Source of the DNA: an uncultured Nostoc sp.
GTDB lineage: Bacteria > Cyanobacteriota > Cyanobacteriia > Cyanobacteriales > Nostocaceae
Length of the DNA stretch: 64,000 bases
NCBI RefSeq assembly: GCF_964247315.1
Contig: NZ_CAXTTT010000005.1
Coordinates: forward strand, 20,373 to 84,372
Direction: 5' to 3'
This document shows, piece after piece, positions 2,699-13,313 of the stretch (positions within the stretch are counted from its first letter, which is position 1; each line of letters starts with the position of its first letter). The notes below the pieces were generated by a model that was given only the letters and a program-made list of their open reading frames with translations, was not told the DNA's origin and made no database searches. The position numbers and the translations under genes were made by a program.

Positions 2699-3541
2699 AT
2701 GATCCGACCGCGTAAGGTCTTTGCTCAACATTGGCTCAAAAGTGAAAAGGCACTCGACGCAATTATTAAAGCAGCAGAGTGTACAGAAAGCGATCGCTCC
2801 CTCAAAGGCGATCACGTCCTAGAAATTGGGCCTGGAACTGGCATTCTGACTCGTCGTTTATTACCCTTAGTGCAATCTCTGGTTGCAGTTGAAATAGACC
2901 GCGACTTATGCCAACTGTTGTCAAAGCAGCTTGGTAAGACTGAAAATTTTTTACTGCTGCAAGGCGATTTTCTCACTCTAGATTTACCATCTTATCTAGC
3001 AGCCTTTCCCAATTTCCAACCGCCAAATAAGGTAGTAGCCAATATTCCCTACAATATTACAGGGCCAATCATTGAGAAACTACTGGGTACGATCGCTAAC
3101 CCTAACCCCGAACCATTTGACTCAATAGTGTTGCTGGTACAAAAAGAAGTGGCAGAAAGGTTATATGCTAAACCAGGATCGAAAGCCTTTGGGGCGTTGA
3201 GTGTGCGGGTACAGTATTTGGCTGAGTGTGAGTTAATCTGCACAGTCCCAGCAGGCGCATTCCATCCACCGCCAAAAGTCGATTCAGCAGTAGTGCGATT
3301 GCGCCACCGAAAAATAGAGATACCAGCACTTAATCCCCGACAGTTAGAAAATTTCTTAAAGTTGGGGTTTGGTGCAAAACGCAAAATGTTACGAAATAAT
3401 TTGCAATCAGTTATAGAACGCGATCGCTTGAGCCACTTACTGGAACAATTAAAAATAAATCCCCAAGCCAGAGCTGAAGACCTCAGCGTTCAGCAATGGG
3501 TAATTCTAGCAAATAAATTGGGAGTGGAGAGTAGGGAGTAA
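2699..3541 (+). CDS. rsmA: 16S rRNA (adenine1518/1519-N6)-dimethyltransferase
   Basis: AQHWL...VLEIGPGTGILT SAM motif and NIPYNITGPI motif, typical KsgA/RsmA. Confidence 0.95.
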   Translation: MIRPRKVFAQHWLKSEKALDAIIKAAECTESDRSLKGDHVLEIGPGTGILTRRLLPLVQSLVAVEIDRDLCQLLSKQLGKTENFLLLQGDFLTLDLPSYLAAFPNFQPPNKVVANIPYNITGPIIEKLLGTIANPNPEPFDSIVLLVQKEVAERLYAKPGSKAFGALSVRVQYLAECELICTVPAGAFHPPPKVDSAVVRLRHRKIEIPALNPRQLENFLKLGFGAKRKMLRNNLQSVIERDRLSHLLEQLKINPQARAEDLSVQQWVILANKLGVESRE

Positions 3542-3639
3542 GGAACAAGGCAGATTTTTTTCCATTCCCCATACTTCATTCCCCATTCTCCATTCCCCCT
3601 TATCCCCAGAGGGGACCCCACCTTCCCCACTCCCAGAAA

Positions 3640-4593
3640 ATGCGTTCTTACAGCCTAATTGCCCCTGCTAAAATCAACTTGTATCTGGAAATCATTGGCG
3701 ATCGCCCTGATGGCTATCACGAATTAGCCATGATACTTCAAAGTATTGGTCTTGCAGACCAAATTGGTGTGCGTTCGAGCAGCACTGACAGTATCCGTGT
3801 TCGCTGCAACCACCCACAAGTACCGACAGATAAAAGTAATCTGGTATACCGCGCAGCAGAATTAATGATGAGGCAATTTCCCCAAGCCTTTGCTAAATAT
3901 GGAGGCGTGGAGATTACGATTAATAAGCAGATTCCTGTCGCTGCTGGGTTGGCTGGGGGTTCGACAAATGCAGCAGCTGTGCTGGTAGGGATAGATTTAC
4001 TGTGGAAGTTGGGGCTAACTCAGTCAGAATTAGAGGAGTTGGCAGGCACACTTGGTTCAGATGTACCATTTTGTGTAGCGGGTGGAACTGCAATCGCAAC
4101 AGGTAGAGGTGAGCAACTTTCTTTGCTGCCAAGTTTAGACAATATCTATATAGTGTTAGCAAAATACCGCAGTTTGGAAGTTTCCACCGCTTGGGCATAT
4201 AAAACCTATCGACAGCAGTTTGGTCATTCTTATATTAGAGATAGCAACAACTTGATAGCGCGTGCTAATGCAGTTCATTCAGGAGCAATAGTAAAAGCTG
4301 TCCTAGATAAAAATGCGGCAGAAATTGCCCGAAAACTGCACAATGATTTAGAACGAGTTGTATTGCCAGACTATCCCCAAGTCTTGCAACTGCGAGAAGT
4401 GTTTGCAAATCAAGAAGGTGTTTTAGGAACAATGATGTCTGGTTCTGGGCCAACAGTATTTGCTCTTTTGGAGTCTCAACAGCAGGCAGAACAAGTGAAG
4501 TTACAAGTTAAAGAAGCAATTCATGATGAAGACTTAGAATTGTTTGTGACTCGAACAATTACACATGGTATTCAGGTGGCATCTTCAATTTAA
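3640..4593 (+). CDS. ispE: 4-(cytidine 5'-diphospho)-2-C-methyl-D-erythritol kinase
   Basis: APAKINLYLEI N-terminus and GHMP kinase motif PVAAGLAGGSTNAAA. Confidence 0.95.
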   Translation: MRSYSLIAPAKINLYLEIIGDRPDGYHELAMILQSIGLADQIGVRSSSTDSIRVRCNHPQVPTDKSNLVYRAAELMMRQFPQAFAKYGGVEITINKQIPVAAGLAGGSTNAAAVLVGIDLLWKLGLTQSELEELAGTLGSDVPFCVAGGTAIATGRGEQLSLLPSLDNIYIVLAKYRSLEVSTAWAYKTYRQQFGHSYIRDSNNLIARANAVHSGAIVKAVLDKNAAEIARKLHNDLERVVLPDYPQVLQLREVFANQEGVLGTMMSGSGPTVFALLESQQQAEQVKLQVKEAIHDEDLELFVTRTITHGIQVASSI

Positions 4594-4743
4594 ATAAATC
4601 TTTATCGTTAAATCAAGTTTTTTAGTTGCATAGTTCAAATCGCTAGTAAAGAGGCATAAATGCAATTTGAATGACGATTAGCTGAGGGCAAAAATTATTC
4701 CTAATGCTCCAATCCAATATCTAACATCTCAAATCTAAATATT

Positions 4744-5073
4744 ATGAATGACCAAAATCTCACGCCGCAAACAGATGCTAAAGAACAGGTAACAGCTAGT
4801 CCGTTACGCTGTTTTACTGGGGCGGTGATTTCTGGAGGGATGGGATTTGCAGCGTATTCGCTGATGATTGCGATCGCGACAAATTTTGCTAGTAAACCGA
4901 TCCATTCAATCAATCCATTGGTGGTGAAGATTTCTTCTGCTGTTCGCACTCTGGTTGTTGGTGTAGTTGCTTTAGGTAGCGGGATTTTTGCTATAGTGGC
5001 AATTGGTTTGTTGGCTTTGGGAGTGCAATTATTAGTGCAGCAATTAACGAAGCAAAAAAGTAGTGAAAACTAG
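4744..5073 (+). CDS. small membrane protein (DUF3082-like)
   Basis: 109 aa with two predicted TM helices. Family assignment is from memory only. Confidence 0.55.
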   Translation: MNDQNLTPQTDAKEQVTASPLRCFTGAVISGGMGFAAYSLMIAIATNFASKPIHSINPLVVKISSAVRTLVVGVVALGSGIFAIVAIGLLALGVQLLVQQLTKQKSSEN

Positions 5074-5552
5074 CAACTTGCTTTTAATCAGTAACCTAAA
5101 GCACAAGTTTTTCTAAAACAGCACGATTTACCTTTACTGTGCAAGGAGTTGATTTTACTCTTGCCAAATTTATTTAACATGAACAGCAAGTGCAGATGCA
5201 GTGCTACTGGTTGCAGCAATTCTCTGGTTTACTGCAACCCTACTTATTTTAGTCAAGCTTTTTAGGATTGATATAGACGCAAAGCGGTGAGGCAGTGCGT
5301 TGGGCAGGTTCTCCGACTTGAAGCAACTGCCGTTAGCGCAGCGTTAGTGAGGTACGAGCGTCACCCGGAGGGCTTGTCGTCAGACATCGCTCCTTGAATA
5401 GCAGATGTTGTAATTTTGGTGTATAGTATAAAATTTGACTTTAAAAAAGTTCGTTTTGACACTTTATAGACTGGCTCAATATTCACGAATTTATGCGGAA
5501 TTGATACCAGCAATACTGAAATTGATAATAGCAACATTATTTATAAGCAAAA

Positions 5553-6161
5553 TTGATGAACACAATCAAGAGATATTTTTTACCCCTTATTTTTGTGACA
5601 ATGGTTGTGAGCCTCGGTAGTTGTAGTTCTAACCCCACCGCAAGTAATATTGACAGCGCAACGTCATACCCTACCACAGCATCAACGAATAGCGTATCTT
5701 CTCAAACTCCCAGCCAAATTCCTAGCGTAGCTCAGTTAAGAGAAAAATCTCCTAATCAAGAATCTCCTAAAGAAAATACGCCTTTCCCATCAACTTCTAA
5801 AATCGCTATTAGCAAAACTACTAGCGTAACAGTATACACAAGTGATACCCAATGTCAAAAACTAATTCCAGAAAAGGTTTCAGTACCAGCCGGTGAACCA
5901 GTGACAAATGTCGTGAGTAAAATCTTAGAAAAACGAGATACAAGCGACTTTAGCTTGTCTGGGTATCGTGTCAACATCAAAAATGGCATTGCTACAGTTG
6001 ATTTACGCATATCTCCTGAGTCAAAGCGGCAAATAACTTCTCTTTCTAGTTGTGAACAGTTTGCTCTGTTTGGTAGTCTCCGCAAAACCTTAACGAGTAA
6101 TGCTCAATGGAATATTAAAGAGGTTCGCTTCACCGAGCGAGGCGAAGATATTGTTCTTTAG
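5553..6161 (+). CDS. lipoprotein with GerMN-like C-terminal domain
   Basis: Signal peptide with lipobox (VVSLGSC), S/T/P-rich linker and a C-terminal domain resembling GerMN. Confidence 0.55.
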   Translation: MMNTIKRYFLPLIFVTMVVSLGSCSSNPTASNIDSATSYPTTASTNSVSSQTPSQIPSVAQLREKSPNQESPKENTPFPSTSKIAISKTTSVTVYTSDTQCQKLIPEKVSVPAGEPVTNVVSKILEKRDTSDFSLSGYRVNIKNGIATVDLRISPESKRQITSLSSCEQFALFGSLRKTLTSNAQWNIKEVRFTERGEDIVL

Positions 6162-6332
6162 TTAAATATTGTAGTAAGTGCTGTCATCAGCTAGCTAAAA
6201 AAATTTCCTAATCTGAACAGCCACAGGACTCATGCATCAGCAGTTGTCAAAATGGTGTATGTTCTAGCCAATTGAAAACAGCTGTAAATAGTGGTATGAT
6301 TAATTTTAGCCATGAGTCTATGGTAGCAATTC

Positions 6333-6404
6333 GCGGGTGTAATTCAGTGGTAGAATGTCACCTTCCCATGGTGAACGTCGTGGGTTCGAGTCCCATCGCC
6401 CGCT
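6333..6404 (+). tRNA. tRNA-Gly (anticodon CCC)
   Basis: Folded by hand: 7-bp acceptor stem GCGGGTG/CGCCCGC, D arm ATTC/GAAT, anticodon stem TCACC/GGTGA with loop TTCCCAT, T arm GTGGG-TTCGAGT-CCCAT. 72 nt, CCA not encoded. Confidence 0.9.
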
Positions 6405-6406
6405 TT

Positions 6407-6531
6407 TGTACATTCGCTAATTATATGTCGTGATTCGCAAATTAGTGTCGTTTTTCGGAAATTAGTGTTGATTAGGCTATTTTTTAGGGTCGATTTAATT
6501 ATGCTAATTTTTTGCAAATTAATGTCGTCTT
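6407..6531. repeat. transposon end (cas12k-proximal) with four or more TnsB-binding-site-like ~20-bp repeats
   Basis: TGTACA terminus, then TTCGCTAATTATATGTCGTG (6413), TTCGCAAATTAGTGTCGTTT (6434), TTCGGAAATTAGTGTTGATT (6454) and TTTGCAAATTAATGTCGTCTT (6511). The first three are phased at 20-21 bp. Confidence 0.7.
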
Positions 6532-6730
6532 AGATTATGGTCTAATTTACACACTAGCTTCTATATTAAACTCATTCACCAGTATTTTGCTAAACCAAGT
6601 TTCAATGGGCAAATTTTCTTACTCTGCACTCAGTACTAACCCTTACCCATTGAACATAATTATAATGAAGCAACTAATCAATGAAAGTACTTGGTAGTAT
6701 ATTGTTTTTACAAGGAAATACTCATTTATT

Positions 6731-6862
6731 TCAACCTTCCATTAGCCAGTATAGCTTTTGACACTTTAGGTGATTTCCAGAATAAAAATTACCACCCAAC
6801 ATCATTCCATCGTAAGTGTCTTCTTCAGCAACCAAGCGACATTGAATTGTAATAACGCTCAT
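6731..6862 (-). pseudogene. cas12k: cas12k 5' remnant; only about 16 codons of Cas12k-like sequence remain
   Basis: The minus-strand ORF starts MSVITIQCRLVAEEDT, matching the Cas12k N-terminus as I recall it (ShCas12k MSQITIQARLIS...). It then degenerates to a stop after 43 codons. Confidence 0.65.
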
Positions 6863-6930
6863 GGTGTTCTCAGCCTTGTGGATTCGGTAACACTGACAGG
6901 GTTGTTAATTGTTTTTTTACTTCCAAGATT

Positions 6931-6960
6931 ATAGCGCAATGCCGCAATAGCGCAATGCCG
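6931..6960. promoter_or_regulatory. two direct 14-bp repeats (ATAGCGCAATGCCG x2, 16-bp phasing); candidate operator between the divergent cas12k stub and the RHH gene
   Basis: Exact repeats at 6931-6944 and 6947-6960 in the 162-bp divergent intergenic region. Confidence 0.45.
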
Positions 6961-7024
6961 TAAATGTTTTTTTACTGAGAGGCTGTGCAAAAATGAAAGC
7001 CGCAAGCTTTGGCTTCAAATTAGG

Positions 7025-7198
7025 ATGGCAGAAGAAACTAGAGAAGTTCGGGGTAGACTCCCTAAAGACTTAAAAATCGCCTTTGAAATTGCCTGTGCGC
7101 GTCTGGAATTGACCCAGACTGCGGCTTTGGAGGAGGCGATTAGAGATTGGTTGAAAAAAAAAGATTCCCCTCCTGGTGGAGAGTCACAGGGGAGTTAA
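7025..7198 (+). CDS. ribbon-helix-helix (CopG/Arc-like) DNA-binding protein, 57 aa; candidate CAST regulator
   Basis: Hand translation: MAEETREVRGRLPKDLKIAFEIACARLELTQTAALEEAIRDWLKKKDSPPGGESQGS*. Shows a beta-strand/helix/helix pattern. Divergent from the cas12k stub. Too short for the ORF track. Confidence 0.55.
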   Translation: MAEETREVRGRLPKDLKIAFEIACARLELTQTAALEEAIRDWLKKKDSPPGGESQGS

Positions 7199-7931
7199 AG
7201 GGTTATGGTCAAAAATACTAGAGTGTTTGTATGATATATATCGTAAATTTGTGTTGGTTACTGCTTTGTCAGCCTTTGTGAGAAGGCGAGGTTTACACCT
7301 ACATCAATCGACGCAAAATCGCTTTATCGAGGAAGTTGTGCGCCAAGAAGTAAAGATGTTCCCAGAACAGGCTTTAAGAGAACTTATTGCTAATGCTTTG
7401 GTACATCAGGATTTTCTAGCCACAGGTACTTCAGTGATGATCGATATGTATAGCGATCGCATTGAGATATCTAATCCCGGCATCCCACCGATTAAGGTAG
7501 AGCGATTTATTGATGAAAATCGCTCCCGCAACGAACAACTTGCCAAGCTAATGCGAATTTTCGGTATATGTGAGGAAAAAGGCAGTGGCATTGACAAAGT
7601 TGTAAGCGCGGCAGAAATGTTTCAACTACCCGCACCAGATTTTCGAGTAGGTGACACACGCACTACAGCAGTGCTGTTTGCCCATCAGGATTTCGCCGAT
7701 ATGAGCAAGAGCGATCGAATTCGAGCCTGCTACCAGCATTGCTGTCTGCTGTATGTCAGCAATCAACGAATGTCTAACCAAGCCCTACGAGAGCGGTTTC
7801 GTCTAAGTGAGTCACAAGCAGCTAATGTTTCTTACATTATAGGATTCACCAAAGAAGCTGGCTTAATCAAGGCAGATGAATCCGAATCAACCTCTACCCG
7901 CTATGCTCGCTATCTCCCTTTTTGGGCATAA
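7176..7931 (+). CDS. ATP-binding protein fragment (HATPase_c_4 / RecG-like putative transcriptional regulator), apparently lacking its N-terminal AlbA_2 domain
   Basis: RELIANALVHQDF...IEISNPG motif typical of the C-terminal half of this family. No N-terminal domain and no convincing start, so it is probably 5'-truncated. Confidence 0.5.
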   Translation: MESHRGVKGLWSKILECLYDIYRKFVLVTALSAFVRRRGLHLHQSTQNRFIEEVVRQEVKMFPEQALRELIANALVHQDFLATGTSVMIDMYSDRIEISNPGIPPIKVERFIDENRSRNEQLAKLMRIFGICEEKGSGIDKVVSAAEMFQLPAPDFRVGDTRTTAVLFAHQDFADMSKSDRIRACYQHCCLLYVSNQRMSNQALRERFRLSESQAANVSYIIGFTKEAGLIKADESESTSTRYARYLPFWA

Positions 7932-8222
7932 AAGTGCTTAAAAGCAAACCGAGATTAGTCACTCTCAAAGCCTGAAACCCTTGTAAAAACAATAAAAAAG
8001 TCCTTAAAAGCAAATCGAGATCAGTCACTCTCAAAGCCTGAAACCCTTGCAAAAACAATAAAAAAGTCCTTAAAAGCAAATCGAGATTAGTCACTCTCAA
8101 AGCCTGAAACCCTTGCAAAAACAATAAAAAAGTCCTTAAAAGCAAATCGAGATTAGTCACTCTCAAAGCCTGAAACCCTTGCAAAAACAATAAAAAAGTC
8201 CTTAAAAGCAAATCGAGATGAG
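7930..8222. repeat. 66-bp tandem repeat, about 4.4 copies, ending 6 bp before the hsdR start codon
   Basis: Period measured from the AAAAG anchors: G at 7934, 8000, 8066, 8132 and 8198. Copies 2-5 are nearly identical. Confidence 0.9.
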
Positions 8223-8228
8223 CGAAAT

Positions 8229-10583
8229 ATGAACGAAGCCGAAACCCGTGCCGAACTAATTGACCCCGCACTAAAAGCCGCAGGCTGGGGAGTTATTGAA
8301 GGTAGTCGCATCCGCCGCGAAGTTATTGCCCCTGGTCGCTTAGTTGGCAATGGTAAACGCGCTCAATCAGACATCGCCGATTATGTACTGGTTTATCGCG
8401 GTGAAAAACTCGCCGTTATCGAAGCGAAAAAACGCGACTTACGAGATACCGAAGGTTTAGGACAAGCCAAAAAATACGCCGAAAAATTGCAGACTCGATT
8501 TGCCTACTCCACAAATGGCATCGGAATCTACCAAGTAGATATGCACACAGGGGCAGAAGGCTACATCAACCAATATCCCACCCCGGAGCAACTATGGTCA
8601 GCCACCTTTAACGAAGATAATGAGTGGCGCGATCGCTTTGCTGCCATCCCTTTTGAAGACAAAAGCGGCACATGGGAAGCCCGTTATTATCAACATAATG
8701 CCATTAAGCACGTCTTAGAAGCAATCTGCCAAGGACAAAACCGGATTTTGTTAACGATGGCAACTGGCACAGGTAAAACCTTCATCGCCTTCCAACTCGC
8801 CTGGAAACTCTTTCAAAGCCGTTGGAACCTCAGCCGACAACCCACCCGTCGTCCGCGAATTTTGTTTTTAAGCGATCGCAATATCTTAGCCAACCAAGCC
8901 TATAACTCATTCTCTGCCTTCCCCGACGATGCCCTCGTCCGCATCGACCCCGAAGCTATCAAAAAACGGGGTCGAGTCCCCAAAAATGGTAGTATCTTTT
9001 TTACCATATTCCAGACCTTTATGACCGGACGGGACGACGCTGGCAATCCTACGCCCAAATTCAGCGACTATCCCCCCGACTTCTTTGACTTCATCATCAT
9101 TGATGAATGTCACCGAGGCGGAGCCAGTGACGAAAGCACCTGGCGGGGCATTTTAGAATACTTCTCCCCAGCAGTACAACTGGGACTCACCGCCACTCCT
9201 AAACGAAAATATAACGCAGACACCTACGCCTACTTCGGCGAGCCAGTCTATACCTACGCCCTCAAAGACGGCATTAACGACGGGTTTCTTACTCCCTTTA
9301 AAGTCAGACAAATCGAAACTAACCTAGATGAATATATTTACAGCACAGAAGATGAACTGATCGAAGGTGCAGTAGACGAAGCCAGAACCTACACTGAAGC
9401 TGACTTCAACCGCATAATTGAAATTGCCGATCGTGAACGCTACCGGGTGCAGTTGTTCATGGAAGAAATCGACCAGAATCAAAAAACTCTGGTGTTTTGC
9501 GCCAACCAACCCCACGCTCTAGCTGTGCGGGATTTAATCAACCAAATGAAGATTAGCAGTGACCCTAATTACTGTGTTCGCGTCACCGCAGATGATGGGA
9601 AACTCGGCGAACAGCACCTCAGCAACTTTCAAGACAACGAGAAAACTATCCCCACCATTCTCACCACCTCCCAAAAGCTATCCACTGGGGTTGATGCTCG
9701 GAATGTTCGTAACATTGTGCTGATGCGCCCCATCAACTCGATGATTGAATTTAAGCAAATAATCGGTCGCGGTACTCGCCTATTTGATGGGAAAGACTAC
9801 TTCACCATTTATGATTTCGTCAAAGCCTACGAACACTTTAACGATCCTGAATGGGATGGTGAACCCCAGGAACCTGTTCTTGTCAAGATTGCCAGAGGGG
9901 GAGAGGAATCAGGTACATACAACGACTCTATAACAGATGGTAATATAAATAGAGGCAAAAATAGAAACGAAACTACAGAAGTTCCCAACCCCAAAACCAT
10001 CAAAATCAAACTCGCTGATGGTAAAGAACGCACTCTCCAGTATCGAATGTCTACCAGCTTCTGGAGTCCGGATGGTAAACCTATGAGCGCCGCAGAATTT
10101 GTGGAACGTCTCTTTGGTGAAATTCCTGAACTATTCAGAGATGAAGACGAATTAAGAGCAATCTGGAGCCGCCCTGATACCCGTAGAGCTTTATTAGAAG
10201 GACTGGCAGAGAAGGGCTACGGGGAAGAACAACTCACAGAAATTAGTCGCCTGATTGATGCTGAGAAAAGCGATTTATATGATGTGCTAGCTTATATCGC
10301 CTATGTCTCACCACCTATAAGCCGCCGAGAGCGTGTCCTCGCTCACAAATCATTAATTTTCTCGCGCTATATCGGCAAACAGCAAGAATTTCTCGACTTT
10401 ATACTCGAACAATACATCAAAGCTGGGGTGGGGGAACTTGATCGCACTAAATTACCTCAACTGTTAGAGTTAAAATATCATACTGTTCGTGATGCTGTTG
10501 AAGAATTAGGGAGCGTTGCGAATATTAGTGAAGTATTTATCGGGTTTCAGCAGTATTTGTATTCTCAGGACATAGTAGCTTAA
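8229..10583 (+). CDS. hsdR: type I restriction enzyme R subunit (HsdR, EcoEI-like), with no hsdM/hsdS nearby
   Basis: N-terminal MNEAETRAELIDPALKAAGW nuclease domain with VIEAKK, helicase motifs MATGTGKT and IIDECHRG, QKLSTGVDA, and an EcoEI_R_C-like tail. Confidence 0.9.
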   Translation: MNEAETRAELIDPALKAAGWGVIEGSRIRREVIAPGRLVGNGKRAQSDIADYVLVYRGEKLAVIEAKKRDLRDTEGLGQAKKYAEKLQTRFAYSTNGIGIYQVDMHTGAEGYINQYPTPEQLWSATFNEDNEWRDRFAAIPFEDKSGTWEARYYQHNAIKHVLEAICQGQNRILLTMATGTGKTFIAFQLAWKLFQSRWNLSRQPTRRPRILFLSDRNILANQAYNSFSAFPDDALVRIDPEAIKKRGRVPKNGSIFFTIFQTFMTGRDDAGNPTPKFSDYPPDFFDFIIIDECHRGGASDESTWRGILEYFSPAVQLGLTATPKRKYNADTYAYFGEPVYTYALKDGINDGFLTPFKVRQIETNLDEYIYSTEDELIEGAVDEARTYTEADFNRIIEIADRERYRVQLFMEEIDQNQKTLVFCANQPHALAVRDLINQMKISSDPNYCVRVTADDGKLGEQHLSNFQDNEKTIPTILTTSQKLSTGVDARNVRNIVLMRPINSMIEFKQIIGRGTRLFDGKDYFTIYDFVKAYEHFNDPEWDGEPQEPVLVKIARGGEESGTYNDSITDGNINRGKNRNETTEVPNPKTIKIKLADGKERTLQYRMSTSFWSPDGKPMSAAEFVERLFGEIPELFRDEDELRAIWSRPDTRRALLEGLAEKGYGEEQLTEISRLIDAEKSDLYDVLAYIAYVSPPISRRERVLAHKSLIFSRYIGKQQEFLDFILEQYIKAGVGELDRTKLPQLLELKYHTVRDAVEELGSVANISEVFIGFQQYLYSQDIVA

Positions 10584-10611
10584 TTAGGCAGATCGCTACA
10601 ATTAAACACCA

Positions 10612-10830
10612 TTAATGTACTGAAATTTTGGTTGTTGACTGTTGGAAATCAATTTTTTGTACAATTATATCTTGCATCTGTCGATTGAATTGCTTGAGTT
10701 TATCAATGTTTACTCCAGACAACTGCCAATATTTTTGATGATCGTAGGTTGTAATCCACAAATGGTCATCAAACTCGACAAGAAGCAGTTCGTCTAGCTC
10801 AATTGAGTCATCCATATTTAGAGAGTGCAT
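10612..10830 (-). CDS. hypothetical protein (72 aa)
   Basis: ORF only. No recognisable motifs. Confidence 0.3.
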   Translation of the reverse strand: MHSLNMDDSIELDELLLVEFDDHLWITTYDHQKYWQLSGVNIDKLKQFNRQMQDIIVQKIDFQQSTTKISVH

Positions 10831-10863
10831 ATTAATACATCCCCAGTTTAGTAGCTGTTAGAT

Positions 10864-10964
10864 GTAGATTTCTCTACTTGTCAGTATCTAAGTTTACAAG
10901 TAGATTTATAACACTCTGAATTTTATAAATCTACACTTAATGCATATCTACACGTCACGTAGAT
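10864..10964. repeat. cluster of five GTAGAT(T/A)T motifs in both orientations, forming three hairpins
   Basis: GTAGAT at 10864, 10900 and 10959. ATCTAC at 10929 and 10946. Inverted repeat CTACTTGT/ACAAGTAG. Confidence 0.5.
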
Positions 10965-11089
10965 TAATTGATAGACAAAACAAAAGCGATCGCCACTCCG
11001 GGAAGAGGCTGCGATCGCCTTTTGTGAAACCCCATCGATGAGGTTACATAGATGATTGTACAAGAAGAGTCTGATAACCAAACCTTAGC

Positions 11090-11417
11090 TCAATCGGAGT
11101 TTGAGGAATACATTGACCAGCTTGGTGAAACTAATAGCTTCAGAAATTGAAATCGATTCAGTACCAGATGAGCTTGGAGACCTATAGATGCTGGTGAAAT
11201 TAGATGTTTGTTTTTAATACTTTCTTCATAAATTGTTTTGATAAATTCTTGCCAGTCTTTCTTCGCTAACTCGATATTTTCCCTTATCTGAGCGTTGTAT
11301 TCCTGCTGATTCTGATAATTTGTTATCATGGTATTGCTTGAGGAGGCGTTCCACCTGATGAGTAGAAACACCAAGGGTATTTGCAACAGCCTGCTTTCTC
11401 TGAGACTTAATCGTGCG
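11090..11417 (-). pseudogene. tnsB: tnsB (Tn7-like/Mu-type transposase) N-terminal remnant: 5'-truncated, frameshifted and 3'-truncated
   Basis: Frame A reads ...QAVANTLGVSTHQVERLLKQYHDNKLSESAGIQRSDKGKYRVSEE. Frame B reads KDWQEFIKTIYEESIKNKHLISPASI. Together these align to ShCAST TnsB residues ~70-140 as I recall them (AAEKLNVSLRTVQRLVKNWEQDGL...SRADKGKHRIGEFWENFITKTYKEGNKG). There is no start codon. Confidence 0.6.
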
Positions 11418-11477
11418 ATATTGACAAATAATTAGTTAATGTACAATTCATCCTTTATACTTCAATGGGTATTCTAC

Positions 11478-13313
11478 TTACCCGCCTAAAGTCCGCGTAT
11501 AAATTACCTGACCTTGGGAATCATAAAGAAAAAGGGACAGATTGGCATTCTCACCAATTACGGCTAGGGCTTCCCGCAAGATTTGCAAGTGATTGGTAAC
11601 ATCAATAGCAGTATCCGAATTCTTAGAATAAGGATTAGCCAAGTTATTTTGCCTTATTTGATCGTACTCTGGGGTTAGTCGGACAATAATTCCTGCATTG
11701 TCCATGTTAAAGGTGCAAATCCGAATTCCATTAGTACAGGTCTTATCCAAGTCAGTGCGGGTTTGTTGCAAACTACTAACAGCTTGTAGTTTTTCTTGTG
11801 ATTGTTTGAGCGCAGCTGAATAGGGTTCGATGACAGACTGAGCTTGAGTGTAGTACAAGCTATCTTGGGGAACTTTTTTAGCAGTTTGCAAAGCCTGATC
11901 CCAATATATCGCCGCTGCTTGCCATTGGTTTTGTTGTTGATAAACTTTGGCTTGCTTGGCGGTGCTAAGGGCCTGTTGGTAGGTTTTAACAGCTAATTGT
12001 TCTTTAGTAGCGCGATCGCGTACTAATACTAACTTAGGTTTATAATCTATCAACAGCTTTTGAGCTTCTTGGTATCCAACGCTATTCCGGAAAATGGTAT
12101 TCAAGGCATTAATTACTATCAGCCAAGTAGACTGCGCCTTTTGCCAGTCATTCAAGGATTTAGCAGTAGCTTCCTGCTTCTCGGCTGTAACGGCTACAGC
12201 TTTTGCCGCAGTTAGTTTTTTCAGCCATTTTTCCTCAATAAATATCTGTTGATTTACAGTGTGCAAACGGACACGATAATTCAGTAATTTACCCTGCACC
12301 AGCCCATAGAGTTCACTACTGGAACTTATACTTTCGAGTGGCGCTATAGCCTGTCGCCATAAATGTTGCCTAGTTTGTAATTCCTCTAAGCTAGATGCAG
12401 GAGTTTGAACTTTTTGTGTCGCCAAAGATCCAGTTTGCAAAGCTTTGACCACCTGATTGATTCTTTGCGATCGCCCAGACAAACTTGCTTGTAGTTCTTT
12501 TGACACCTGGTAACGAGGCGACCAACTAGGAATTACATTTAGGTCTGTACTGGCTGCTGTAAGTTGCTGTTGTACAGCTACTAATTCTTTTTCAGACTTG
12601 GCGCGGCGCATCATCTGTGGAGATTTTGTTTTTAATTGCTCGGCGTTTTGTATTTCTTTACACTCAGACATCACACAAGGGCGAGTTAATAAGTAAGCAC
12701 CACCGCCTAAAACTAAAATTCCCACCAACACCGTACCCAGTAGGATAGGTTTGACCTGGAATCCTCTCTTTGAAGCCGATAAATTCGGCACATCTGCAAA
12801 TGGGTCAAACAGTTCTTCTTCTTTACTCTCATTGATTGATGGAGAATATGTCAGAGATGATGAGGAGGATATTACTTCCTTATCTTCTTGTGCTTCCTCA
12901 TCTCCCTCTGCTACCCATCCCTCAGTCGGCTTCAATGCCAAGAAACATTTAGTATAAGGGAGTTGTTCGCCAAAAACTCTGAGGAAACATTGCACCCGCT
13001 GCTCTTTGTGGGGTGCTAGAGATTGAAGTACTTCCTCAATGACTGCAAAAATTAGTTGAGCGTCAACTATTACATCTGAGGCGTGTTGCGTTAAAATCAT
13101 TAGCTCGCCTTTATTGACGACGCACTTAACCTCGAAGACTTCAGCGGTTGAGACTTCTACAAGTAATTGTTCTTGCAAAGTTTTGGCTAAAAGCTGTAAA
13201 TCTTCCTGCTGGACTGCTACTTTCATAGAGCTTTGCCGCTGAACTTCTATATTGTTTTGATTATCTTTAAGGGGATGAAATGAACTTTTTAGGTTTGTTG
13301 AATGCAAATGCAC
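11478..13313 (-). CDS. hypothetical membrane-anchored protein (one central TM helix, large C-terminal domain)
   Basis: 611-aa ORF with TM segment ILLGTVLVGILVLGGGAYLL. An alternative start is MKVAV at 13226. Confidence 0.6.
   Translation of the reverse strand: MHLHSTNLKSSFHPLKDNQNNIEVQRQSSMKVAVQQEDLQLLAKTLQEQLLVEVSTAEVFEVKCVVNKGELMILTQHASDVIVDAQLIFAVIEEVLQSLAPHKEQRVQCFLRVFGEQLPYTKCFLALKPTEGWVAEGDEEAQEDKEVISSSSSLTYSPSINESKEEELFDPFADVPNLSASKRGFQVKPILLGTVLVGILVLGGGAYLLTRPCVMSECKEIQNAEQLKTKSPQMMRRAKSEKELVAVQQQLTAASTDLNVIPSWSPRYQVSKELQASLSGRSQRINQVVKALQTGSLATQKVQTPASSLEELQTRQHLWRQAIAPLESISSSSELYGLVQGKLLNYRVRLHTVNQQIFIEEKWLKKLTAAKAVAVTAEKQEATAKSLNDWQKAQSTWLIVINALNTIFRNSVGYQEAQKLLIDYKPKLVLVRDRATKEQLAVKTYQQALSTAKQAKVYQQQNQWQAAAIYWDQALQTAKKVPQDSLYYTQAQSVIEPYSAALKQSQEKLQAVSSLQQTRTDLDKTCTNGIRICTFNMDNAGIIVRLTPEYDQIRQNNLANPYSKNSDTAIDVTNHLQILREALAVIGENANLSLFLYDSQGQVIYTRTLGG

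Follow-up and report, generated by a model that had tools for sequence, protein, structure and literature searches.

Remnant of a probable type V-K CRISPR-associated transposon beside tRNA-Gly(CCC) in an uncultured Nostoc

Results

The window analysed here is a 64-kb stretch of DNA from an uncultured Nostoc. It contains an intact tRNA-Gly(CCC) gene (6333..6404, plus strand; ARAGORN; Rfam RF00005, 63.6 bits), and two nucleotides past this gene begins the segment studied, 6407-11446. On the minus strand the segment reads end B, tnsB stub, cargo, ribbon-helix-helix (RHH) gene, cas12k stub and end A, the order given in the initial annotation. The Arc-like RHH gene and its promoter region, hsdR and one transposon end with four repeats have remained intact. 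Searches of the window by tblastn (tnsC, tniQ across all 64 kb), by repeat detection (CRISPR-type repeats) and against Rfam (no match besides the tRNA) found none of the missing components, and of the tnsB-tnsC-tniQ operon TnsB residues 62-138 alone remain.

The cas12k/CRISPR-proximal end (end A, 6407..6531, plus strand) opens with TGTACA at 6407, two bases (TT) past the tRNA discriminator, exactly where it had been placed. Repeat searches located four TnsB-site-like repeats of ~17-20 bp starting at 6413 (terminal), 6434, 6454 and 6511, spaced by 21, 20 and 57 bp; the initial annotation had likewise described at least four ~20-bp repeats, the first three phased at 20-21 bp. Three repeat matches were found where shuffled sequences predict 0.14. 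With its TGTACA terminus and several putative TnsB-binding repeats of ~20 bp, end A has the make-up of a Tn7-like end. It is collinear with 4489-4613 of the orthologous locus L088, at the same 2-nt offset from tRNA-Gly, and also with the ends of L098 and L083. Next to it lies a non-coding stretch (6532..6814, minus strand; L088 alignment) reaching the position formerly held by the anchor repeat-spacer; window 5431-6814 aligns to L088 3512-4895 at 88%.

L088 has orthologous flanks (aligned over window 4000-6406) and the same tRNA-Gly(CCC) and TGTACA offset as the window, and carries a 633-aa Cas12k, three CRISPR repeats and an anchor spacer. Cas12k is the nuclease-dead Cas12 effector of type V-K elements, and the L088 protein matches ShCas12k (7n3o) end to end (E=4.7e-241). 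The window is collinear with L088 apart from a single gap, the 2684 bp of L088 4896-7579, and alignment resumes beyond the junction at 6814/6815 (window 6815-7190 to L088 7580-7955, 95%). Directly past this junction lie the first 16 codons of cas12k (MSVITIQCRLVAEEDT; 6815..6862, minus strand; L088 alignment), identical at 16/16 positions to the start of L088 Cas12k, which also reads MSVITIQCRLVAEEDT. A cas12k stub had been proposed and is present, but it is confined to these 16 codons; the rest of its 43-aa ORF is read-through across the deletion junction. Profile searches, which had been suggested as a check, and PDB searches gave no match for this ORF; for the tnsB stub a PDB search did give one (below). 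The tracrRNA is also gone from the window element, its L088 counterpart lying within the deleted 2684 bp.

Upstream of cas12k is a divergent promoter region (6863..7024; alignment of nine sibling loci) in which window and L088 agree at 155/162 positions. The nine-locus alignment revealed conserved CGCAAT iterons phased at 8 bp (~6931-6965), a candidate operator. The region ends at an intact gene for a 57-aa Arc-like RHH regulator (7025..7198, plus strand; Pfam PF21432 56B_RHH, 8e-16), 98% identical to its L088 counterpart over residues 1-48. It is encoded on the strand opposite to cas12k, whose start is 162 bp away, and an RHH regulator adjoins cas12k in at least ten sibling loci. The small divergent regulators of V-K CRISPR-associated transposons (CASTs) fall into the classes CvkR, Arc_1 and Arc_2, and Arc-type regulators upstream of and divergent to cas12k have been described (PMC9938897).

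The cargo begins with the C-terminal 206 codons of an AlbA_2/HATPase_c_4 gene (7312..7931, plus strand; Pfam PF13749, 2.9e-22), cut at a junction at 7311/7312. A near-identical relic, L107, has a cas12k junction ORF identical to that of the window and retains the full 472-aa AlbA_2/HATPase gene together with hsdM, PIN and hsdS genes; the 3740 bp of L107rc 5290-9029 are missing from the window. The locus is deletion-prone, and many different relics occur among relatives. A 66-bp tandem repeat of 4.4 copies (7930..8219; TRF, 97% matches; repeat family D1) directly precedes an intact gene for an EcoAI-family type I restriction R subunit (hsdR, 784 aa; 8229..10583, plus strand; NCBIfam NF046051, 6.1e-254; Pfam ResIII, EcoEI_R_C). 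Comparison with L107 indicates that hsdR is now an orphan, because the 3.74-kb cargo deletion took hsdM, PIN and hsdS. Farther along, the segment 10827..11180 corresponds to DNA found just downstream of tniQ in intact elements (L017 16121-15769, 84.5%). Within it is part of a 110-aa gene, whose L017 protein matches window 11022-11184 by tblastn.

The tnsB remnant (11173..11419, minus strand) encodes residues 62-138 of 624 with one frameshift. By BLASTP it is 77% identical to L014 TnsB over residues 62-127 (E=9e-31) and 85% over 113-138 (E=2e-13), and its best PDB match is ShCAST TnsB, residues 58-109. In L017 and L014 the orthologous operon encodes TnsB (624 aa), TnsC (284 aa) and TniQ (184 aa), each with the expected Pfam domains, and lacks tnsA. 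The ~3.07 kb of L017 12703-15768, comprising the rest of tnsB, tnsC and tniQ, are missing from the window.

Fused to tnsB codon 62 is end B (11420..11446, minus strand). The initial annotation had paired it with end A as inverted termini, and the similarity itself stands: the 23-mers of the two termini match at 20/23 positions across 5039 bp, the arms 6406-6429 and 11423-11446 are complementary at 21/24, and TGTACANNNNCNAATTANNTGTC occurs in the 64 kb at just these two termini, where shuffles predict 0.00. What does not stand is that they are the two ends of one insertion. Comparison of the flanks in relatives placed end B at a constant distance from the flanking gene in ~20 Nostoc genomes, among them genomes whose site is empty (L004, L006, L008, L012, L013, L015, L016, L018, L021). 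L017, L007 and L011 each contain an intact CAST with a separate end of its own, located 125-235 bp inward of end B. On this comparison, end B evidently represents the outermost 27 bp of a solo tnsB-side end older than the element, not the cognate partner of 6407.

The flanks of the two termini, GCTTT at end A and ATTCA at end B, show no 5-bp duplication. This had been noted as an oddity; the observation is correct, but it is no anomaly, because end B is not the element's own end. The duplication expected from the window's GCTTT|TGTACA is seen in L007, whose tnsB-side junction reads AAAGC|TGTACA. The absent duplication is weak evidence alone, because the near-complete sibling L098 likewise lacks a clean one. 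It would even be compatible with transposition of the whole segment, since V-K CASTs, which lack TnsA, can form cointegrates. The segment could then be a 5-kb, internally deleted, non-autonomous (MITE-like) element with a cognate pair of ends, both TGTACA, that transposed as a unit and that an intact CAST elsewhere might mobilise. We regard this as very unlikely: besides the recurrence of end B with the same flank in genomes with empty sites and the separate inner ends of intact CASTs, end B consists of 27 bp with one repeat joined without frame to tnsB, the ends of young elements resemble end A more than end B does, and the window holds no second copy. The flank comparison instead indicates that the element's own tnsB-side end and target-site duplication are deleted, and that the boundary on the right now comes from an older relic.

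Alignment of the tRNA-Gly(CCC) locus in relatives, recommended at the outset as a way to find an empty site and the true boundaries, provided both. In at least nine relatives with empty sites, the left flank stops exactly at window 6406 and the right flank begins at 11420. The L088 flanks are 88% identical to the window; closer relatives (93-96%) have empty sites. That the segment is instead ancestral chromosome, with the empty relatives produced by precise deletion, might be entertained at so deletion-prone a locus, with its many relics; in these relatives the tRNA and the old end are 100-260 bp apart, and the intervening DNA may itself be debris of an older element. However, similarity to relatives ends precisely at the base before TGTACA, and on the tnsB side of the young element in L007, GCTTT leads into the very sequence found after the tRNA in empty sites, a hallmark of an insertion into it. 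Ancestral origin is thus highly improbable.

Sibling elements carry a truncated repeat and a 17-nt anchor spacer matching the tRNA stretch at window 6353-6369. This protospacer (GAATGTCACCTTCCCAT), identified from sibling anchor spacers, lies in the anticodon-arm region of tRNA-Gly(CCC), next to a GTA PAM at 6350-6352 (together 6350..6369, plus strand). The anchor spacer of L097 (GAATGTCACCTTCCCAA) matches its own tRNA at 17/17 positions and the window at 16/17, and that of L088 matches the tRNA at 16/17. The window has 57 nt between PAM and transposon end, as does L088, within the 46-82 nt from a GTN PAM reported for V-K CASTs (PMC9938897). No anchor spacer was found in 6407-7030, where the best 17-mer has 6-7 mismatches to the tRNA, the chance level; the L088 anchor (4956-4972) lies inside the segment deleted from the window. 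The cas12k/CRISPR-proximal end faces the tRNA in all ten sibling loci examined. The initial annotation had judged this polarity opposite to that preferred by ShCAST; that judgement was mistaken, since native V-K CASTs place this end by the tRNA (PMC9938897; bioRxiv 2021.02.06.429022).

These data also bear on whether the remnant derives from a Tn7-like element without CRISPR, which found the tRNA through TnsD/TniQ and whose likeness to cas12k is coincidental. Tn7-like elements that target tRNA genes are numerous in Cyanobacteria (PMC9881144), and profile searches gave no match for the cas12k stub. However, a bona fide cas12k at the orthologous locus shares 95% identity, in its start and promoter, with the stub and the 330 bp upstream of it, the RHH gene is a neighbour of cas12k in the siblings, the short TnsC and TniQ without tnsA are typical of V-K operons, and ten siblings have anchor spacers matching the adjacent tRNA. 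We give this origin almost no credence.

Discussion

Taken together, these results show that 6407-11446 is very probably the immobile, heavily deleted fossil of a type V-K CAST, as first proposed; the 16/16 codons shared with L088, the TnsB match to L014 and the RHH gene all point this way. The cas12k stub is assigned through collinearity with L088, the cas12k sequence left in the window amounting to 48 bp and the upstream region. It is a known kind of element at its usual landing site just past a tRNA gene, real but ordinary. The tblastn and repeat searches and the L088 comparison bear out the earlier statement that tnsC, tniQ, most of cas12k and the CRISPR array are gone. The relic cannot move on its own, as had also been concluded, because transposase and guide RNA are lacking and just one of its ends is complete; its mobilisation in trans appears unlikely.

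Siblings and the literature suggest how the element could have arrived. Like L088, L098 and L017, it would have produced a crRNA from a truncated repeat and a 17-nt anchor; this guide would match tRNA-Gly(CCC) at 6353-6369 beside the GTA PAM, where Cas12k would bind. Through TniQ and TnsC, insertion by TnsB would then be directed to a point 57 bp from the PAM and 2 nt beyond the tRNA gene, with the cas12k/CRISPR-proximal end toward the tRNA, the canonical native orientation. The relatives show that the solo tnsB-side end of an earlier occupant was already present at the site.

Alignment to relatives shows decay by four deletions. Deletion 1 (2.68 kb) removed the anchor repeat-spacer, CRISPR array, tracrRNA and cas12k codons 17-633. 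Deletion 2 (3.74 kb of cargo) accounts for hsdM, an 80-aa gene, the PIN gene, hsdS and the 5' half of the AlbA_2/HATPase gene, and deletion 3 (~3.07 kb) for tnsB codons 139-624, tnsC and tniQ. Deletion 4 (at least 0.56 kb) took the first 61 tnsB codons (1-61) along with the element's own tnsB-side end, the 5-bp duplication and spacer DNA, and ran into the old solo end, sparing just its terminal 27 bp. The numbers carry no chronology, as we infer both the deletion order and a single-insertion history; alternatively, separate insertions may have hit one and the same nucleotide, or alleles may have been exchanged.

The RHH gene is intact beside a destroyed cas12k in several independent relics (the window, L107, L093/L094, L086). 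This would fit retention of the RHH repressor, the CGCAAT iterons and the four-repeat end as protection against further CAST invasion, and fits equally well with chance and the gene's small size. We consider such protection unlikely. Were it real, the repressor would act in trans to shut down the cas12k and tnsB of incoming elements, end A would confer target immunity on the tRNA-Gly site, and the beneficiary would be the host or a resident CAST.

The closest known systems are the cyanobacterial V-K CASTs with Arc-type (RHH) regulators of Ziemann et al. 2023 (PMC9938897), together with the intact siblings L088, L098, L017 and L014. The shared layout runs from the tRNA and one end through the anchor spacer, CRISPR array, tracrRNA and cas12k to a divergent small regulator, then through cargo and tniQ-tnsC-tnsB to the other end. 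Common to the window and these elements are the GTA PAM 57 nt from the end, TGTACA termini and iterated ~20-bp repeats, and the window and L088 share 95% DNA identity over the cas12k start and RHH gene. Unlike intact V-K CASTs, the window lacks guide RNAs, tnsC, tniQ, most of tnsB and its own tnsB-side end, and retains 16 codons of cas12k.

The experimentally characterised V-K systems are ShCAST (Scytonema hofmanni; PDB 7n3o, 7svw, 8ea3) and AcCAST. ShCAST provides both the best PDB match of the window tnsB stub and the Cas12k with which the sibling protein aligns end to end. In contrast to ShCAST, the window element is non-functional; ShCAST is associated with regulators of the MerR-type class, not RHH. 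For both ShCAST and sibling-type V-K elements the PAM is GTN, and insertion takes place ~60 bp downstream of it, always in one orientation (bioRxiv 2021.02.06.429022).

Degenerate loci are also on record: of 210 regulator homologues, 169 have as a neighbour 'a cas12k gene or a degenerated version of it' (PMC9938897), and further degenerate cas12k loci occur among the relatives (L093/L094, L086, L009, L107). Like those described in PMC9938897, the window keeps a regulator beside a degraded cas12k and a tRNA gene; in contrast to them, the window copy has been reconstructed deletion by deletion, and its distal end traced to an earlier occupant of the site.

Results

A tRNA-Gly(CCC) attachment site and transposon end are retained

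The plus-strand tRNA-Gly(CCC) gene occupies positions 6333-6404 of the window, and a TGTACA terminus starts at 6407, two bases past the tRNA discriminator. Arms at 6406-6429 and 11423-11446 are complementary at 21/24 positions, and a degenerate end motif (TGTACANNNNCNAATTANNTGTC) is found within the 64-kb window at just these two sites (shuffle expectation 0.00). End A, the cas12k-proximal end of the relic, carries a terminal repeat and three more at 6434, 6454 and 6511. Thus the sequence features described in the initial annotation (tRNA, TGTACA, inverted termini, repeats) are all present and non-random. The ShCAST end sequence given there for comparison was not found in the literature. The target is also kept in the window: GTA stands at 6350-6352 and the protospacer at 6353-6369, and the spacing of 57 nt to the end is the one seen at locus L088.

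One deletion removed most of cas12k and the guide RNAs

The intact 57-aa RHH protein, an Arc-like regulator encoded by the relic, was used to scan metagenome contigs, yielding 24 loci. Ten of these have, in order, a tRNA, an end of the TGTACA type, an opposite-strand ORF of 630-680 aa and the RHH gene. Orthologous to the window locus is L088, which shares its flanking genes and tRNA-Gly(CCC) and has an end that begins 2 nt past the tRNA. Its 633-aa ORF (N-terminus MSVITIQCRLVAEEDT) is Cas12k, aligned end to end with ShCas12k (7n3o; E=4.7e-241). Window and L088 align in two collinear blocks (5431-6814 with 3512-4895, 88%; 6815-7190 with 7580-7955, 95%) and therefore differ by one 2,684-bp deletion. 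The L088 segment missing from the window contains three CRISPR repeats (GTTTCAACAACCATCCTGGCTAGGGGTGGGTTGAAAG), the tracrRNA region and cas12k codons 17-633, together with a truncated repeat followed by a 17-nt spacer (GAATGTCATCTTCCCAA) that matches the tRNA at 16/17 positions beside a GTA PAM. A like anchor arrangement, with 15-17 of 17 positions matching the adjacent tRNA, was observed in L097, L083, L087, L098, L099, L103, L084 and L095.

No anchor spacer matching the tRNA is left in the window. Two candidate truncated repeats, at 6598-6654 and 6728-6744, were rejected: the 17-mers downstream of them do not match the tRNA, and the L088 alignment places the true anchor in the deleted part. 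The cas12k stub itself survives as the start of a 43-aa ORF. Its 'QKLYWLMEG' segment was considered as Cas12k interrupted by an insertion, a reading rejected by the L088 alignment, which sets the junction after codon 16. With this ORF, phmmer against the PDB gave no match and a large protein-database search returned the identical ORF alone, entered as a hypothetical protein of 'uncultured Nostoc sp.'. Pfam and NCBIfam profile searches recognised the RHH gene and the cargo, and missed the cas12k and tnsB stubs because these are too short.

It had been considered odd that the cas12k-proximal end abuts the tRNA. In native V-K elements the tRNA contains the anchor protospacer, at 46-82 nt from the cas12k-proximal end, and tnsB-tnsC-tniQ lie at the far end (Ziemann et al. 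2023, PMC9938897); Hsieh and Peters describe the natural orientation and spacing as consistent with the E. coli experiments (bioRxiv 2021.02.06.429022). All siblings examined agree with this orientation, and the supposed anomaly reflects a confusion of naming.

The tnsB side is truncated

Among PDB entries, ShCAST TnsB (residues 58-109, E=0.0035) best matches the minus-strand translation adjoining end B, the terminus on the tnsB side. Compared with the 624-aa TnsB of L014, the stub corresponds to residues 62-127 (E=9e-31) and, past a frameshift, 113-138 (E=2e-13). At the orthologous locus, L017 and L014 encode TnsB (624 aa), TnsC (284 aa; AAA_22/TniB) and TniQ (184 aa). Window positions 11173-11419 align with 12702-12460 of L017 and positions 10827-11180 with 16121-15769; the gap between these L017 blocks indicates that ~3.07 kb, comprising the remaining tnsB, tnsC and tniQ, is gone.

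End B belongs to an older insertion

A search with the right-flank gene identified 80 Nostoc loci (protein identity 70-93%). The initial annotation had proposed to look for an empty site at tRNA-Gly(CCC) in close relatives. In at least nine close relatives (L004, L006, L008, L012, L013, L015, L016, L018 and L021), similarity to the window extends to 6406 and resumes from 11420, with just 100-260 bp of unrelated sequence in between. These relatives are empty sites for the element, though end B (11420-11446) and a second degenerate repeat are already there. The two termini therefore do not form the pair of a single element, as had been proposed.

It could be supposed that a simple deletion within a single element brought end B and tnsB together. 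This was rejected, as L017, L007 and L011 hold an intact or partial CAST whose own tnsB-side end (TGTACATTCGCA...) lies 125-235 bp inside the old end; in L014 an additional insertion sets the old and young ends further apart. The young end of L007 adjoins AAAGC, the reverse complement of GCTTT, beyond which lies the post-tRNA sequence of the empty sites. The window junction GCTTT/TGTACA predicts just this 5-bp duplication. Of the old end, the window retains 27 bp, which run into tnsB codon 62 (junction GTCAAT/AT/CGCACG); a fourth deletion must therefore have taken tnsB codons 1-61, the cognate end, the duplication and the spacer DNA. It is because of this deletion that the window lacks a target-site duplication.

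Near locus position 11870-11900, L003-L021, L025 and L075 carry a 27-60-bp solo end (TGTACATTAACTAATTATTTGTCAATTTAAC...); a hairpin that comes after it (CCCTGACATA...TATGTCAGGG) is also conserved. The distance of this solo end from the 611-aa flank gene is constant in ~20 Nostoc genomes. At least three of the genomes (L017, L007 and L011) have received new CASTs 125-235 bp from it.

Cargo and regulator

L107, a relic found in a different assembly, is 96% identical and has the identical junction ORF; its cargo is ordered RHH, hsdM, an 80-aa gene, PIN, hsdS, AlbA_2/HATPase_c_4 (472 aa) and hsdR. The complete type I restriction-modification cargo is still there (2703-9893; ENA ERZ22827554 NODE_54). 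The window is without 3,740 bp of it (junction 7311/7312), a loss that orphaned its intact EcoAI-type hsdR. Of the chimeric 251-aa ORF at 7176-7931, the last 206 codons alone are genuine. A tandem array of a 66-bp unit (7930-8219; 4.4 copies, 97% identical) stops 10 bp short of the start codon of hsdR; its copy number varies, being lower in L107.

Of the relic, the RHH gene with its promoter region, a single complete end and hsdR are still intact. The cas12k-RHH intergenic region (6931-6965) contains CGCAAT motifs at 8-bp phase (ATAGCGCAATGCCGCAATAGCGCAATGCCG), conserved in an alignment of nine loci; these iterons are plausibly the operator of the Arc-like repressor. Within this intergenic region, 55 bp are deleted in L107. 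Beside tRNA-Thr(CGT), L093 (688-1608) and L094 (9218-10138) have cas12k residues 1-138 joined to 511-582 and an intact RHH gene, which is another instance of the regulator outlasting the effector.

Further relics and siblings

The tRNA-Gly site of related Nostoc holds many further relics, independent and each broken differently: L009 (12356-12563), L022 (11879-11947), L075 (12021-12097), L035 (6734-6770) and L003/L010 (beside the tRNA). Among their contents are a piece of Cas12k (residues 271-325), tnsB fragments joined to the flank gene, 37-47 nt of the end and a bare TGTACA. At tRNA-Ala(CGC), L098 (5846-17063) is a compact, nearly complete 11.2-kb V-K CAST with both ends, anchor spacer, Cas12k, RHH, TnsB and TnsC; its TniQ match is truncated (residues 1-110) and a clean 5-bp duplication is absent (GTTAT versus CCATT).

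In the plasmid database, blastn gave short, uninformative matches alone, on plasmids of Anabaena sp. 90 and Nostoc HK-01. On pANA01 of Anabaena sp. 90, a gap in the annotation contains a 133-bp stretch (L001, 8001-8133) with 82% identity to window positions 6817-6948, the cas12k start and promoter region; this stretch may be another cas12k relic.

Discussion

Siblings and the literature suggest that the element would have arrived by crRNA-guided homing to tRNA-Gly(CCC), after which all mobility functions were lost through the four deletions that the alignments show. The one less ordinary reading is that repressor and end were kept as a putative anti-CAST immunity module, which is unlikely.

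The value of this locus is modest and lies in the reconstruction of its history. The tRNA-Gly(CCC) site has been repeatedly occupied in this Nostoc clade: among 80 relatives, ends of two or more generations are seen, as are many relics of independent origin. A solo end with one to two repeats, 125-235 bp away, gave weak immunity, as new guided insertions were not blocked. Moreover, inverted termini that seem to be a pair can be chimeric and stem from two separate insertions, a caution for methods that call transposon boundaries and cargo automatically.

Cyanobacteria are already known to carry degraded V-K CASTs beside tRNA genes, and another is of little importance on its own; degenerate cas12k loci adjoining such regulators have also been reported (PMC9938897). 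Compared with the V-K CAST family that carries an Arc-type regulator, the window holds a degenerate member: guide RNAs, tnsC, tniQ and the duplication of a functional element are all absent, whereas the ends, attachment site, PAM spacing and regulator are those of the family.
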